64,000 bases of DNA, taken from NCBI GenBank assembly GCA_040751795.1, contig JBFMHR010000002.1, positions 1-64,000 of the forward strand. The letters are read 5' to 3'. Positions within the stretch are counted from its first letter, which is position 1. Every line of letters starts with the position of its first letter. Positions 1,146 through 64,000 of this stretch are shown one piece after another. Source of the DNA: Thermoplasmatota archaeon. Its GTDB lineage: Archaea > Thermoplasmatota > Thermoplasmata > UBA10834. Both the position numbers and the translations under genes were made by a program. A model generated the notes under the pieces. The model was not told where the DNA came from, did not search any database, and saw only the letters and a program-made list of their open reading frames with translations.

Positions 1146-1258
1146 GCGGGGATGGCCCAGCCCGGCAAGGCGCTGGATTGCTATCCCGTTCCTTCCGGAA
1201 CCGGCAAACATCCAGTGCTCGAAAGAGCTCGGGGGTTCAAATCCCCCTCCCCGCGCCA
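1146..1258 (+). tRNA. tRNA-Ser(GCU) with a 26-nt intron at 37/38 (1184-1209), CCA encoded
   Basis: Acceptor GCGGGGA/TCCCCGC-G-CCA; anticodon arm CTGGA-TT-GCT-A^...^A-TCCAG; long variable arm GCTC-GAAA-GAGC; T-loop GGTTCAAATCC; BHB central helix TTGC/GCAA with 3-nt bulges; TTTAAG box at ~1113. Confidence 0.95.
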
Positions 1259-35852: not shown

Positions 35853-36568
35853 GCGGTCACCACCCTGGTGAAGACCTCCTCGATGTTGGAGGCGCCGTGC
35901 TTGGACTTGAGCTCCGAGGGGGTCCCGAGCTCGACGATCATGCCGTCGTTGATGAGCGCGATCCGGTCGCACATGAGCTCGACCTCCAGCATGTTGTGCG
36001 AGGAGAGGAGGACGGTCGTCCCCTTCTCAGAGATGTCCTTCACGGTCCTGCGGATCTCCTGCGCGTTTATCACGTCGAGGCCGGACGTGAGCTCGTCGAG
36101 TATCGTGAGCTTCGGGTCCGTCATGAGCGCCCTGCTCACGAGGAGCCTCCTGGTCATGCCCTTGCTGTAGGTGTCGACCCGGTCGTCGATCCTGTCCTCG
36201 AGCGACGCCATCGCCACGCCTTTGCGGACCATATCGTCCGCGGCCTTCCCGCTCGAGAAGAACCGGGCAATGAATTCGAGGTACTCCCTCCCCGTGAGGT
36301 TCTTGTACGCGCCAGCATCCTCTGGCAGGTAGCTGAGGATCTTCCTGACCTCGTGCGGCTCCTTCCTGAGGTCCTTCCCGAAGATGTGCACGGAGCCGGA
36401 GGAGATGCGGAGGAGGGTCGCAAGCACCCTGAGGGTGGTGGTCTTGCCCGCCCCGTTGGGTCCTATGAGCCCGAATACCTCGCCCTCGCGAACCTCGAAA
36501 GAGATGCCCTTGACAGCCCTGAACGGGCCGTAGTCCTTGACCAGGTCCCTGACCTCGATGGCGTTCAT
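35849..36568 (-). CDS. ABC exporter ATP-binding subunit
   Basis: GPNGAGKTT, YSKGM, ILDELTSGLD, SSH. Confidence 0.93.
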   Translation of the reverse strand: MNAIEVRDLVKDYGPFRAVKGISFEVREGEVFGLIGPNGAGKTTTLRVLATLLRISSGSVHIFGKDLRKEPHEVRKILSYLPEDAGAYKNLTGREYLEFIARFFSSGKAADDMVRKGVAMASLEDRIDDRVDTYSKGMTRRLLVSRALMTDPKLTILDELTSGLDVINAQEIRRTVKDISEKGTTVLLSSHNMLEVELMCDRIALINDGMIVELGTPSELKSKHGASNIEEVFTRVVTA

Positions 36569-59182: not shown

Positions 59183-60397
59183 TCACGGGAAGGAGAAGCC
59201 GGGGTCGGAGAGCCTGTCCAAGTAGGCGCTGACGGGAGAGCCCTCCTTGATCGCCTTCGAGACCTTGTTGACGTCCTTCTTCGTCCCGAGCAGTATGGCA
59301 CCGATCATCTTCCCGTCCCTGACGACGAACTTCCTGTAGACGCTGCCGTCCGGGGCCAGCGCGCGGATCTCCTGGAACGTGCTCTCGGGCGGCTCGTGCT
59401 CGCTCCTCACCGTGCCTATGGAGGTGAGGTCGATGCCCATCACCTTCAGGGTGTTGGAGGGCACGGTCCCGCGGTAGTCCGGGGCCTCCTGGCCAAGGAT
59501 CTTCTTCGCGGCGACCCTGGCCTGGTCCAGCGCCGGCGGGATGATCCCCCAGGTCCTGCCGTCGAACTCCGCCACGTCCCCGACGGCGAATATATCCGGC
59601 TCGGTGGTCCTGAGGGAGGCGTCCACCACTACGCCCCTGTTGACCTTGAGCCCGGCGTCCTTGGCCAGCCCGAGATTGGGCCTGGCCCCCGCCGAGACGA
59701 CTACCATGTCCGCGTCGACGGCCCTGCCGTCCTTCAGCTGCAGGCCAGTGACGGAGGCCCCGCCCAGGACCTCTTCCGTCTCGGCCCTGGTCATGACCTT
59801 GATGCCGCCCGCCTCGACCCACCTCTGGAGTATCTCGGCGCCCTCGTGGTCCAGCTGCCTCATGAGCAGGTGCTCGGCGTACTCGAGGACCGTTATCCTC
59901 AGCCCCTTGAAGCCTGTCGCGAGGGCGCGCGCGGTCTCGAGCCCCAGCAGTCCCCCGCCGATGATGGCCACGTCCTCGGCCTTGGAGGCGGACGACATGA
60001 TCCTCTTCGCGTCGTCGAGGGTCCTCAGGGTGAACACGTCCTCCTTCGGGAGGCCCTTGAGGGGCGGGAGGAACGCGCTGGCCCCGTTGGCCAGCACCAG
60101 CCTGTCGTAGGCCACCTTCTGCCCCTTGACGGTGACGGCCCTGGCCCCCGGGTCGATGCGCTCGACCTTGGAGCCGAGGTGGAGGGCGATGCGGTTCTTC
60201 TGGTACCAGTCCAGCGGGAAGAAGGGCATCTCCCCCTCCTTGACGGAGCCAGAGATGAGGTCGATGAGCTTCGGCCTCGCGTAGTACGGCGCCGTCTCGT
60301 CCGTGTATATGGAGATGTCAACGCCCGCGTCCGCGTCCCTCAGAGCCTTCGCGACGTTCGTGCCAGCGACGTTGTTGCCGATGACCAGTACCTTCAT
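59183..60397 (-). CDS. FAD/NAD(P)-dependent oxidoreductase (rubredoxin reductase / NirB N-terminal-like)
   Basis: YDRLVLANG, IGGGLLGLE, IFAVGDVAE, SNTLKVMGIDL. Confidence 0.88.
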   Translation of the reverse strand: MKVLVIGNNVAGTNVAKALRDADAGVDISIYTDETAPYYARPKLIDLISGSVKEGEMPFFPLDWYQKNRIALHLGSKVERIDPGARAVTVKGQKVAYDRLVLANGASAFLPPLKGLPKEDVFTLRTLDDAKRIMSSASKAEDVAIIGGGLLGLETARALATGFKGLRITVLEYAEHLLMRQLDHEGAEILQRWVEAGGIKVMTRAETEEVLGGASVTGLQLKDGRAVDADMVVVSAGARPNLGLAKDAGLKVNRGVVVDASLRTTEPDIFAVGDVAEFDGRTWGIIPPALDQARVAAKKILGQEAPDYRGTVPSNTLKVMGIDLTSIGTVRSEHEPPESTFQEIRALAPDGSVYRKFVVRDGKMIGAILLGTKKDVNKVSKAIKEGSPVSAYLDRLSDPGFSFP

Positions 60398-60547
60398 TCT
60401 CCCGCTCCCAGACCCTGCCTTCATCCCACGCCATGTTTCTGCGTCTGATTAAGGTTGCGGCGGAGGCGTTCGTGTGTGGGTGTGCCCGGAGGGGAGACCT
60501 CAGTTACCTTCATATCTGGTCCAGGCGATTATTCGCCCGGTGGATCG

Positions 60548-61186
60548 GTGGCGAGGTGCGCGTGGTGCGGAACAGACAACGCGCCCGACGGGAGCTTCTG
60601 CCTGAAGTGCGGGAAGCCCCTCCCGTGGGGGCTGGTCTCAGGCGCATGCGAGAAGTGCGGCGCGGACAACGCGCTCGGGATGACGAGGTGCGGTAGCTGC
60701 GGCGCGCCCCTCTCGGCGCCGCGGCAGGCCCCCCAGCCCCAGGCGGCTGCGCCCAGCGGCCCGGTGTGCAAGTGGTGCGGGAAGCAGGTCCCTCCCGGGA
60801 GCGACATGTGCTGGGAGTGCGCGGAAGGCCCCGGGGAGGACTACATCCCGGAGGTGGAGGGCGGGGGCCGCTCTGAGACGCTGAACGCCGCTGGCGCCAT
60901 GCTGATCATCGCGGGCGTCATCATGCTCATCCAGGGGGTCCTCTTCGTGGCCAACGTCCCCGTGCTCGGCCTGGGGGTGGGGTACCTGGTCTGCTGCGGC
61001 TTCCTCGAAGTGCTCTTCGGGGTCGGCGCCATCATGGCCGGCCTCTCTGCGACGAAGCGGGAGAACTTCGCCCTCGTGGTGGTCGGCTGCGTCCTGGCGA
61101 TTGTCGGCTTCGGCGCGGTCATCGGCACCCTGCTCGGGGTCATCGCCCTCCTGATCGTCCTTGCAGACAGGGGGGAGTTCGATTGA
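60548..61186 (+). CDS. Zinc-ribbon protein with a C-terminal 4-TM domain
   Basis: Three CxxC...CxxC units, then hydrophobic helices ending RGEFD. Confidence 0.75.
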   Translation: MARCAWCGTDNAPDGSFCLKCGKPLPWGLVSGACEKCGADNALGMTRCGSCGAPLSAPRQAPQPQAAAPSGPVCKWCGKQVPPGSDMCWECAEGPGEDYIPEVEGGGRSETLNAAGAMLIIAGVIMLIQGVLFVANVPVLGLGVGYLVCCGFLEVLFGVGAIMAGLSATKRENFALVVVGCVLAIVGFGAVIGTLLGVIALLIVLADRGEFD

Positions 61187-61563
61187 CCGCGTCGGAGGAC
61201 GCGCCCTGCGCGGACGCCCCGGGCCCCGAGGACCGGGGGAAGGTGCGCAGGGAGCTGCTGGCCGCGTCCGTGCTCCTGGCTGTGGCCGGCGTGCTCGCGA
61301 TCGTCCAGGGCGGATTCATATTCTACGTCGCAGCGGACCTCGGCAGCACCATCAACCCGCTCATAGGCCTCTGCTCGATGCTCGGCCTCCTGTTCGGGGC
61401 GATAGCGGTGATGGCTGGCTACGGCGTCCATGTCCGCTCGGGGTTCAGGTTCCTGGTGGTCTCGTGCGTCATCGCCGTGTTCGGCGTCGGCTTCTTCGCG
61501 GGGTCGGCCCTGGCCTTCGTCGCCCTGTACCTGGTCGGGAGGAACAGGGACGAGTTCCGCTGA
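61183..61563 (+). CDS. 4-TM membrane protein, paralog of the upstream gene's C-terminus
   Basis: Same helix pattern, ending RDEFR. Confidence 0.7.
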   Translation: MTASEDAPCADAPGPEDRGKVRRELLAASVLLAVAGVLAIVQGGFIFYVAADLGSTINPLIGLCSMLGLLFGAIAVMAGYGVHVRSGFRFLVVSCVIAVFGVGFFAGSALAFVALYLVGRNRDEFR

Positions 61564-62620
61564 GGCGGAGCTCGCGCTGACCGGTAAGGGAAATTAGAAA
61601 GGAAGGAACGCAGCAGTTCGCATGTGCAGCACGTATAACGGCTGAGCCGATATTGCCAGGCCAACATGTTGTTTAGCGGCTACAACTTTTAGTAGCTGCG
61701 GGCTGAATGCCTCGGCGAACCTTGGCACTTACACCCCAGCTCTATCAACGCCATCATGTAATGGCGGTTGTGAGGTGCCTCGTTTTCGGGGCGGCTTCAA
61801 GCTTAGATGCTTTCAGCTTTTATCCGCTATCGCGTGGCTGCTCAGCATTGCCCTGCCGGACAACTGATAGACTAGAGGCGACGAATCCTCGTTCCTCTCG
61901 TACTAAAGGATCCTTCCCGTCAGGCACCAAGACGCTTCCAGCAAAAAGCAACAAACCTGTCTCACGACGGTCTGAACCCAGTTCACGATCCCTTTTAATG
62001 GGCGAACAACCCCACCCTTGGCAGCTGCTGCACCACCAGGATAGGAAGAACCGACGGCGAAGTAGCAAGCCTCCAGGTCGATATGGACTCTTGCTGGAGA
62101 CGACTCAGTTATCCCCGGGGTAACTTCTCTGTAATCACTGACCCCCACTTGTGAGGTACAGTGGTTCGCTAGGCCCTGATTTCTCATCGTGGTTCGTTGT
62201 TGGGCCGAACCACGTCAAGCCGGCTTTTGCCCTTGCACTCTTCGGTAGATTTCTGACCTACCTGAGCCGACCTTAGGGCGCCCTTGTTACCTTTTTGAGG
62301 GCGTGGCGCCCCACCCAAACTGCCTACCTACCGGTGTCCATCCGAAGATGTAAGTGGTACGAGTTCAAAAGGGCGGTGTTTCATCGTCGACTCGGAACTG
62401 ACCTAGCGGCCAGCCCTGGTAACGTCTCCCGCCTACGCTACACATTCGAGCTCATATCACAACGACAGGTTGCAGTAAAGCTCCACGGGGTCTTCGCTTT
62501 CAGCTGGAAGTTGACGGACTGTGCGCCGTCATGTAGGTTTCACCGGCCTCGACGCGGGGACAGTAGAGCTCTCGTTGGGCCTTCATGCAAGTCGCCAATT
62601 AAGCGACAAGGTATTACGCT

Positions 62621-63318
62621 CACATCTGTTACTTTCGAGACCTCCGATTGCTCGGAGGCGGGACACGATTTCTCGTGGCCTCCTCATGTCGCCATGAGGG
62701 TCGGACTATATCTTCATCCATCCGGATGTTCGGCGTATAGTCTCTGAGGATTCTAGACGCAGATTCGTTTCGCCTTCTGTTCATCTCACTTGCGAGTATG
62801 GCTACTTCCCTTAGTCCTGCTGCAGTCAGATGTTGACCTCTGTCAATGATCCGGACTGCTTGCGCGAACTTCTTGAAGTCGTTCCGCTTCTTTGTCCGCA
62901 GAGGATTTCTATCAAAGAACTCCACAACCTTCTTCAGGTTGTCTAGTCCACGTACTCTGAGTTCCATCCGATCGCCGTTGTTAACGACGACCGATCCACA
63001 ATCGAAGAACGATTGCATGACTCTCAGGATGCCTATGTCTCTGCGGTGCTGTACTACGCGGAACTCTGGCAACACCTGCCAACCCATCTTCATTCGTGGT
63101 TGACGATTGATGCCTATATGGAAGCAACCTTCTCCATCGACGAACCCGACGACCCAATTCGCATCTAGCCTTTCCTGCTGATTACCTGCACCCATCACAT
63201 TGTCACCAGGCACTCGAGGCCTTCTCCTTATCTCGAGGAGTTGACCGAAAGTGCTTCGGTAGTGTGAGATACTCAGGCGTTCCAGCATATGGCCGAATTT
63301 TACTAAGGCAACGCAGTC
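62621..63318 (-). mobile_element. Group I intron at 23S position L1931 (698 nt)
   Basis: Exon junction UAAGGU^AGCG; terminal G; P1 UAAGGU/GCCUUA with U-G; P AUGCUGGAA, Q AAUCAGCAGG, R UCAGAGACUA, S AAGAUAUAGUCC; P3 UUCGGC/GCCGAA; P8 CAUCC/GGAUG; three GNRA-capped P9 hairpins. Confidence 0.93.
62629..63195 (-). CDS. Single-motif LAGLIDADG homing endonuclease
   Basis: WVVGFVDGEGCF, F-x-V-x-Q, FFDCGSV, PLRTKKRNDFKKF; GGTGA upstream of the ATG. Confidence 0.93.
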   Translation of the reverse strand: MGAGNQQERLDANWVVGFVDGEGCFHIGINRQPRMKMGWQVLPEFRVVQHRRDIGILRVMQSFFDCGSVVVNNGDRMELRVRGLDNLKKVVEFFDRNPLRTKKRNDFKKFAQAVRIIDRGQHLTAAGLREVAILASEMNRRRNESASRILRDYTPNIRMDEDIVRPSWRHEEATRNRVPPPSNRRSRK

Positions 63319-63352
<34 letters not shown>

Positions 63353-64000
63353 ACGGTCCTTCGTTCCCTTGTAAGGGAGTTTCAGATACCGTCACTGGGC
63401 AGGATTCAGCGGCAATACGCATCCTTTCGGACTAGCTGCCACCTTTGTTTTGGTTAAACAGTCGGGGCTCCCTTGTCACTGCGACCAGCTCATCACTGAG
63501 CTGGCACCGCTTCTCCCTAAGTTACGCGGCTAATTTGCCGAGTTCCCTCGCGTCAATTAACGCCGACAGGCCTTGGACTTCTCATCCAGGGGCACCTGTG
63601 TCGGATCTTGGTACGATCGTTCCAGTTGTTTAGCACATCCTTTTTCACGGGCACCAGGGATAGGCTGAAGGGGGCCTTCGCCCCCCTACTCGTGATTTCA
63701 CCCGGTTCTCGCCATTACGGCTCTTCCCGGGCTTATACACTTGAACAGATTGGCGCTCCTGTTCAGCATACCCCGATACGTCAGGATGTGCGCAGAGACT
63801 GGCACGGTGCAGGAATATTAACCTGCTTACCCTTTCGACGTTCTCGATTAAGGAACGCCTTAGGATCGACTAACCCTCGACTGACGAACATTGTCGAGGA
63901 ACCCTTGCCCCTACGGCCGAGCGGATTCTCACCGCTCTTTGCTGCTACTCCCACCAGGATCCTCATTCGAACGCGGTCCATTCGATCTCACGACCGAACT

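Follow-up and report, generated by a model that had tools for sequence, protein, structure and literature searches.

The stretch of DNA analysed here, referred to as the window, is 64,000 nucleotides (nt) long and represents positions 1 to 64,000 of contig JBFMHR010000002.1 (GenBank assembly GCA_040751795.1) from a Thermoplasmatota archaeon of the class Thermoplasmata. Near its end lies an archaeal 23S ribosomal RNA (rRNA) gene that is interrupted by a 698-nt insertion, very probably a mobile group I intron belonging to the family seated at 23S position 1931 in many bacteria, organelles and archaea. Within the insertion is an open reading frame (ORF) for a homing endonuclease of the LAGLIDADG_1 family, and the three features are placed as follows.

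61669 to 64000, minus strand: 23S rRNA gene, in-window part (LSU_rRNA_archaea); the gene continues to contig position 65296
62621 to 63318, minus strand: group I intron, 698 nt, at E. coli U1931^A1932, with its terminal G at 62621
62629 to 63195, minus strand: single-motif LAGLIDADG_1 homing-endonuclease gene, 188 codons plus stop, ATG at 63195

The in-window part of the rRNA gene matches the LSU_rRNA_archaea model at 1505.5 bits, and the whole gene, found at contig positions 61671-65296 on the minus strand, matches it at 2690.1 bits. The Rfam large-subunit (LSU) alignment contains a single large insertion, of 699 nt, at the place of the intron. In reading the sequence for exon ends, the 5' exon is seen to end in CUCUUAAGGU, with its U at 63319, and the 3' exon to start with AGCGUAAUACC, with its A at 62620; the numbering of E. 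coli K-12 rrlB (2904 nt) assigns 1931 to the U of UAAGGU and 1932 to the A that follows. Relatives without the intron have both exons joined at precisely the same junction. An earlier note on this DNA had described a 698-nt insertion exactly at U1931^A1932 and ending in G, and both the coordinates and the site proved exact by sequence and by rrlB numbering.

Ribozyme fold and comparative support

The predicted fold of the window's copy consists of the following elements, listed from the 5' to the 3' side of the transcript.

63319 to 63325, minus strand: last 7 nt of the 5' exon, UUAAGGU, exon strand of P1 (7/7 paired, U63319 in the U-G pair)
63303 to 63315, minus strand: internal guide sequence, P10 strand UGCGUU at 63310-63315 and P1 strand GCCUUAG at 63303-63309
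63292 to 63297, minus strand: P3 5' strand, UUCGGC (partner 62729-62734)
63282 to 63287, minus strand: P4 5' strand, UGCUGG (partner 63176-63181)
63274 to 63277, minus strand: P5 5' strand, CCUG (helix paired in the window copy)
63204 to 63268, minus strand: P5a/P5b arm, P5a 63262-63268/63191-63198 and P5b 63258-63261/63204-63207
63208 to 63257, minus strand: extension of the P5b loop, about 50 nt, in ORF-containing copies only
63176 to 63188, minus strand: P5 3' strand (63185-63188) and P4 3' strand (63176-63181), also endonuclease codons 3-7
63164 to 63168, minus strand: P6 5' strand, CUAGA (partner 62753-62757)
62758 to 63163, minus strand: L6 insertion (intron 156-561), endonuclease body, absent from ORF-less copies (alignment A1, BLAST)
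62753 to 62757, minus strand: P6 3' strand, UCUAG (partner 63164-63168)
62736 to 62742, minus strand: P7 5' strand, GACUAUA (partner 62704-62710)
62729 to 62734, minus strand: P3 3' strand, GCCGAA (partner 63292-63297)
62715 to 62728, minus strand: P8 hairpin, fully paired in the window copy
62704 to 62710, minus strand: P7 3' strand, UAUAGUC, with J8/7 directly before it
62682 to 62699, minus strand: P9 hairpin, GCGA loop, fully paired
62661 to 62680, minus strand: P9.1 hairpin, GAAA loop, 7/8 paired with one C-U mismatch
62641 to 62658, minus strand: P9.2 hairpin, fully paired; the homologue alignment is weak here
62615 to 62620, minus strand: first 6 nt of the 3' exon, AGCGUA, exon strand of P10 (6/6 paired, two of them G-U)

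P3, P4, P5, P5a, P5b, P6, P7, P8, P9 and P9.2 are all fully paired in the window copy, and P2 is absent from it. The marks of a group I intron are present together, namely the U-G pair in P1, the pairing of P10, the terminal G, and a P3-P9 core with the P3/P7 pseudoknot. The earlier note had a guide sequence pairing with both exons, which is what the letters give (P1 with all seven pairs and U-G at the splice site, P10 with all six, including the two G-U), and its complete core with GNRA P9 hairpins is likewise found, with every helix in place and the loops GCGA and GAAA closing P9 and P9.1.

In comparing the intron by BLAST with 41 genomes (the window's own, G000, included), matches were obtained in 12. 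Genome G010 has a full-length copy of 704 nt, the match spanning 694 nt at 78% identity, and in several other relatives the site holds a shorter intron, 250-284 nt long, for which matching is confined to positions 1-60, 113-156 and 562-698. From this pattern of matching, the core is seen in alignment A1 to be interrupted twice, by an ORF-carrying insertion of about 400 nt and by another of about 50 nt.

Support for the fold comes mainly from alignment A3, comprising 20 different ORF-less introns at LSU position 1931 (L1931) from the same class with 8 nt of exon on each side; the tested structure (P1, P10, P3, P4, P5, P5a, P5b, P6, P7, P8, P9, P9.1 and P9.2) was drawn on the sequence of one relative, G006. 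Standard pairs occupy 94.3% of 1585 cells, against a mean of 83.1% for shuffled alignments (0/500 shuffles as high) and only 34.6-38.7% when the partners are slid by 1-3 columns. Both sides are altered in 32 of the 81 pairs, compared to 5-8 in the slid controls. Pairing is 100% in P3, P4, P5a, P5b, P6 and P9, followed by P7 (98.6%), P8 (98.0%), P5 (96.3%) and P9.1 (95.6%). Double changes occur in two pairs of P3, in 6/7 pairs of P5a and in 4/5 pairs of P8, one pair of P7 varies as A-U, U-A or G-C, and the U-G at the splice site is conserved in all 20 homologues. As the structure was derived from one of the aligned sequences, the paired percentage is biased upward, and the double changes are the stronger evidence. 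The predicted group I fold is beyond chance, its helices carrying compensatory changes in 20 homologues.

Model searches agree with the alignment. Six ORF-less homologous introns from five related loci (one locus has two) score 62-68.7 bits on the Rfam model RF00028 (Intron_gpI), for which the gathering cut-off is 50 bits. A covariance model built from A3, named R1, matches the window intron in two pieces, one of 141.8 bits at 62613-62925, in which the 5' half of the model is forced into the ORF, and the other of 80.3 bits at 63094-63326. By table reading, R1 also matches 79/80 named loci with a gene for the same endonuclease, from bacteria (Pseudothermotoga included) and archaea; the exception, L040, has a sequence that begins 30 nt ahead of the endonuclease match. 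The earlier note took the insertion for a group I intron, encoding a LAGLIDADG protein and seated at L1931 in archaeal 23S rRNA, and this is upheld by the fold, the covariation, the homologues scoring on Intron_gpI and the Pfam match of the encoded protein.

The highest R1 scores, 156-160 bits, were given by ORF-less introns located elsewhere in bacterial 23S genes and having different P1 sequences (L049:2615-2923, L026:667-957 and L088:1023-1314), thereby placing the same ribozyme family at several 23S sites in those hosts.

The endonuclease gene and its overlap with the ribozyme

The longest open frame in the intron, 62629-63288, has 219 codons. The upstream ATG at 63288, with which it opens, was rejected as the common start, since in G010 the frame does not stay open that far. 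All three ORF-containing copies (G000, G010 and G079) share just one ATG, at intron position 124 (window 63195), and the product is probably a protein of 188 amino acids (aa) that begins MGAGNQQERL.

The protein matches Pfam LAGLIDADG_1 (PF00961) at 87.9 bits, with a cut-off of 23.1, in one stretch from residue 47 to 145, and its motif GFVDGEG is near-invariant in 23 relatives, the D, G, E and G being invariant. The double-motif enzymes I-PanMI and I-OnuI each match it twice, once per half, and it is therefore of the single-motif type. Single-motif LAGLIDADG enzymes work as homodimers. The closest solved structure is PDB 5gkk, a 170-aa 'putative homing endonuclease' (E 3.6e-49) that aligns with residues 41-198 of the 219-aa frame; a whole-word literature search found no published work on PDB 5GKK. 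The match takes in DEDxVxP, a stretch that J8/7-P7 of the ribozyme encodes in the window.

The body of the gene lies within L6 (intron 156-561) and the ribozyme core is overlapped at both gene ends. In the 567-nt gene (stop included), the first 32 nt double as P5a'-P5'-P4'-P6, and the last 129 nt, stop included, double as P6', J6/7, P7, P3', P8, P7', P9, P9.1 and P9.2, with the stop codon 8 nt ahead of the 3' splice site. The sequences GA[GD]NQQERL and SRILRD are almost invariant across the protein family, as the RNA fixes these residues. Selection on the protein itself can be read from codons lying only in L6, where the ratio of nonsynonymous to synonymous change (dN/dS) is 0.18 for G000-G010, 0.08 for G000-G079 and 0.08 for G010-G079; values of 0.08-0.18 outside the ribozyme indicate that the protein is under purifying selection. 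Such selection, and the patchy presence of the intron among close relatives, indirectly suggest that the putative endonuclease may cleave the intron-less allele site-specifically.

The extra stretch of about 50 nt in the P5b loop is present in the three ORF-containing copies (the window, G010 and G079) and in 0/20 ORF-less ones. It has two possible small hairpins and a purine-rich AAGGAG stretch, and it may have a part in expressing the endonuclease. The predicted proteins of some distant relatives begin within the extension or ahead of it.

Distribution, splicing and competing explanations

The intron was found in 31/401 sampled genomes of the class (G000 included) as a match to the ORF-less intron at E <= 1e-8, a figure that is a lower bound since many bins lack rRNA. 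By family, it is present in 10/45 genomes of f1, 1/3 of f2, 1/7 of f15, 4/11 of f23, 13/33 of f25 and 1/3 of f27. Three f25 genomes carry twin homologous introns 8 nt apart, at L1923 and L1931, and one f27 genome has an L1923 intron beside an empty L1931 site.

L110:1483-2004 (G150): twin L1923/L1931 introns
L113:1497-2025 (G118): twin L1923/L1931 introns
L114:1223-1748 (G377): twin L1923/L1931 introns
L116:1497-1764 (G124, family f27): L1923 intron beside an empty L1931 site

Within the window's genus, represented by 12 genomes, the ORF-containing intron is found in two (G000 and G010), the ORF-less intron in one (G006) and the empty site in five (G001, G002, G004, G005 and G009), with neither intron form nor an empty site seen in the remaining four (G003, G007, G008 and G011, 55-84% complete). 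The exons of G006 and G010 are 99.8% identical over 1800 nt, yet their intron forms differ; in G015 and G018, members of another genus with exons 94% identical to those of G006, the introns share 96% identity with the G006 intron. Global-alignment identities between ORF-containing and ORF-less introns are rough due to their unequal lengths, and BLAST figures are the safer ones. Disagreement of this kind between intron and exons is what lateral exchange, or loss and re-invasion, among close relatives would give. The chances appear even that the genus has been caught in the middle of a homing cycle, with empty, endonuclease-bearing and endonuclease-less sites and with discordant intron forms in near-identical hosts. 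If so, a group I intron would still be moving laterally among free-living archaea with one 23S gene apiece, and these would be a natural system for studying homing in cells that have no second allele.

A change in the target region was also seen in the 3' exon after the intron of G079 (L115), which reads AACGUAAU where others have AGCGUAAU. The same change is found at the empty site of G026, and it may be a natural target-site variant.

Based on the intact fold and on the behaviour of group I introns in general, the intron would be transcribed within pre-23S rRNA, where its guide sequence would pair with the end of the 5' exon to form P1, with U-G at the cut, and a free guanosine bound in P7 would attack at this position. 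The terminal G (62621) would then enter the guanosine site as P10 holds the 3' exon, and the exons would be ligated. At the DNA level, going by its family and the patchy distribution, a dimer of the LAGLIDADG protein would cut intron-less 23S genes at the site, and repair would copy the intron in. The protein may also help the RNA to fold, as reported for its Thermotoga neapolitana relative.

Near-identical introns occur in public sediment, wetland and soil samples, and contigs of three RNA runs (X3, X8 and X13) and one DNA run (X1) were compared with 61669-64000 at 97% likeness. All four runs contain intron contigs that are 97-99% alike, at low depth. Contig ends that pass from 62620 directly into the 5' exon were seen in X3, X8 and X13 and in the DNA run X1, and the only listed joint across the intron (62620 to 63319, skipping 698) is from X1, with 22 letters on one side. 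As the joined form exists there as DNA, the RNA junction pieces say nothing on splicing, and exon-to-intron depth ratios are confounded because relatives share exons.

A number of observations weigh against the window's copy being an active, mobile group I intron. Exon-exon junction pieces come from RNA and DNA runs alike, perhaps from intron-less relatives. P9.1 holds one C-U mismatch in its eight pairs. On A3, P10 is just 56.9% paired, in a badly aligned stretch; the same alignment also hurts one P6 pair and part of P9.2. The window's own intron reaches 39.9 bits on Intron_gpI (E 1.8e-8), below the curated cut-off and with only the 3' half aligned sensibly, a low score that arises because the ORF splits the ribozyme core. 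Lastly, the long C-terminal tail of the protein, which is encoded by the 3' domain of the ribozyme, may have no function in the protein; it is perhaps incidental here, since the proteins of many relatives end earlier, near P3'/P8.

In weighing other explanations, the RNA may have a group I fold and still not be spliced and ligated in the cell, so that the intron is retained or is excised to leave a fragmented 23S rRNA. This agrees with the public RNA contigs showing the same junction pieces as the DNA run, but is quite improbable, as the helices of the catalytic core have all stayed intact, along with the U-G pair and the terminal G, and compensatory change across the class is a prediction of selection for splicing. 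A different account concerns the protein, which could lack homing activity and be kept as a maturase aiding the fold of the ribozyme, with the intron inherited mostly vertically. Purifying selection fits either role, the gene overlaps the ribozyme core at both ends, and the protein of the T. neapolitana 23S intron is given maturase-like activity in a 2014 review (PMC3984707). Against a maturase alone stand the intact catalytic motif, the occurrence of empty, ORF-containing and ORF-less sites in one genus, and the disagreement of intron form with exon similarity, the latter two pointing to ongoing gain and loss; this account is judged unlikely.

Splicing might instead follow the classical archaeal route, in which a bulge-helix-bulge (BHB) intron is cut by the tRNA splicing endonuclease and merely carries a LAGLIDADG gene. 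Such LAGLIDADG-bearing BHB introns are known from archaeal rRNA (PMC6125680), and the genome does encode a tRNA-intron endonuclease in its tandem-repeat form, a single 393-codon frame with two tRNA_int_endo domains (G000:C23:100992-101789, minus strand). A BHB motif was sought at the two junctions and 0/16 registers had the full 4-bp central helix, the best having 3/4 central pairs with flanking helices of 2/4 and 3/4; with covariation and Rfam backing the group I fold, a BHB intron here is highly improbable. The window itself has, at 1146-1255 (plus strand), a tRNA whose anticodon loop is ..UUGCU.., whose variable arm is long and in which the anticodon is followed by an insertion of 28 nt; it is read as an intron-containing tRNA-Ser(GCU) (Rfam match 43.7 bits, no ARAGORN call). 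At the gene level, the coexistence of ribozyme and EndA splicing proposed in the earlier note is borne out by this pair of genes, and both routes coexisting had already been noted for other archaea (PMC6125680).

An assembly chimera, with the rRNA segment or intron derived from another organism, must also be considered, since rRNA genes are often misbinned and the G+C content of the rRNA part is 0.54 compared to 0.65 for the contig. An rRNA G+C lower than that of the rest of a high-G+C genome is usual. The 23S gene lies 61 kb inside a contig of 404,090 bp, and the same window encodes archaeal elongation factor 2, archaeal alanine-tRNA ligase and the large subunit of DNA polymerase II. In G006, G004 and G018, the best match of the oxidoreductase gene at window 59183-60424 lies within a few kb of the 23S site and runs in the same orientation; the gene itself was also found in G017. 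The chimeric segment that the earlier note had named as grounds for rejecting its reading was not found, and a chimera is very unlikely. The 16S gene is on a different contig from the 23S gene and neither a 5S nor a 16S gene was found within 10 kb beyond the latter; unlinked 16S and 23S genes presumably agree with a Thermoplasmatota-like host.

Wider relatives, published counterparts and neighbouring features

Turning from rival accounts to the origin of the group I intron, 4788 of 5141 database candidates are relatives of the endonuclease at E <= 1e-10, and the best of them is 95% identical and lies on a 1.9-kb contig. A scan of species-representative genomes, which leaves out the window's own and nearest records, gave at least 516 endonuclease loci. 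The best 80 of these show 43-62% identity, with archaeal hosts among the Woese-, Aenigm-, Nano-, Micr- and Pacearchaeota, Methanosarcinales and Nitrososphaerota, in addition to many bacterial phyla. In the endonuclease tree (78 rows; 5/82 loci with a match were dropped as the match covered fewer than 111 query residues or had a stop inside), the three copies of the class form one side of a branch with a Shimodaira-Hasegawa-like approximate likelihood ratio test (SH-aLRT) value of 95.7, and the nearest other endonucleases are at about twice the path length. Domain labels on the tree require at least four changes, two of which are forced by starred branches, and as judged from the tree the endonuclease family has crossed domains during its history. 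Grouped as it is with other copies from its class, the window copy looks like a resident there, and the tree gives no support to its having come in lately from a distant lineage. The earlier note's view that the element probably arrived by cross-lineage homing is not supported for this copy, given a family resident in 31/401 genomes and an endonuclease that groups with the two other copies of the class.

Archaeal introns of this kind have been in print since 2018, when Nawrocki, Jones and Eddy (PMC6125680) described 39 archaeal group I introns, 27 of them of type IB4 and 21 with LAGLIDADG ORFs. Their Table 1 has 15 IB4 introns at LSU/1931, the commonest archaeal group I site; the IB4 label is the typing of these 15 and not of the window intron. 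The hosts belong for the most part to DPANN phyla and Thaumarchaeota, with three Euryarchaeota contigs besides, which matches what the earlier note said of archaeal group I introns, and at LSU/1931 they are Thaumarchaeota, Woese-, Pace-, Micr- and Nanohaloarchaeota, a single hypersaline-lake contig of Euryarchaeota and a contig to which no phylum is assigned. These introns share the host gene and insertion position of the window intron and have similar lengths (about 250-400 nt without and 680-760 nt with an ORF); about half have a LAGLIDADG ORF, and they co-occur with L1923 introns, as in the window's class. None of the accession prefixes in Table 1 match the named loci of the present scan.

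Bacterial counterparts include Pseudothermotoga locus L037, where the endonuclease is 50% identical to that of the window and the R1 match is 74.4 bits; the L1931 introns of Thermotoga and Pseudothermotoga differ from the window intron in having bacterial hosts and distant sequences. Going by its title, a 2003 report of Nesbo and Doolittle is said to describe self-splicing of these 23S introns. In Candidate Phyla Radiation (CPR) bacteria, PMC11270868 describes LAGLIDADG_1 genes carried by insertions in the 23S gene, with position 1931 among the sites along with 1917 and others, and one enzyme was tested biochemically. Those at 1931 are likewise single-domain LAGLIDADG_1 proteins of about 180 aa inside group I introns; unlike in the window, the hosts are bacterial. 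As recently as 2014, archaea were described as free of group I introns in the review already cited (PMC3984707).

No literature report was found that names this intron in Thermoplasmatota (a paper that did come up deals with Asgard archaea and has no bearing on it), and among the titles and abstract beginnings of literature from 2019 on, no survey of archaeal group I introns was found beyond the 2018 paper. The kind is already known, and the window intron is a structurally complete, well-supported addition to the archaeal group I introns first reported in that year that leaves knowledge of their mechanism unchanged. In its class, the intron is a resident and recurrent element and not a one-off, as seen from its presence in 31/401 genomes and from the one family with L1923 and L1931 twins. 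The most interesting by-product is the mix of empty, ORF-containing and ORF-less sites within one genus, which provides a usable test bed for archaeal intron mobility among close relatives. In practical terms, an unrecognised intron of this type leads to rRNA genes that are mis-sized or broken in annotation, amplicon design or probe design.

Two further features of the window were observed. Between the oxidoreductase gene and the rRNA gene, at 60540-61563 (plus strand), are two small open frames, the first with hydrophobic stretches after its repeated Cys-x-x-Cys pairs and the second hydrophobic and similar in its tail. At 35877-35957 (plus strand), ARAGORN calls a tRNA-Ser(TGA) that is below the Rfam tRNA cut-off and lies inside long open frames on both strands.

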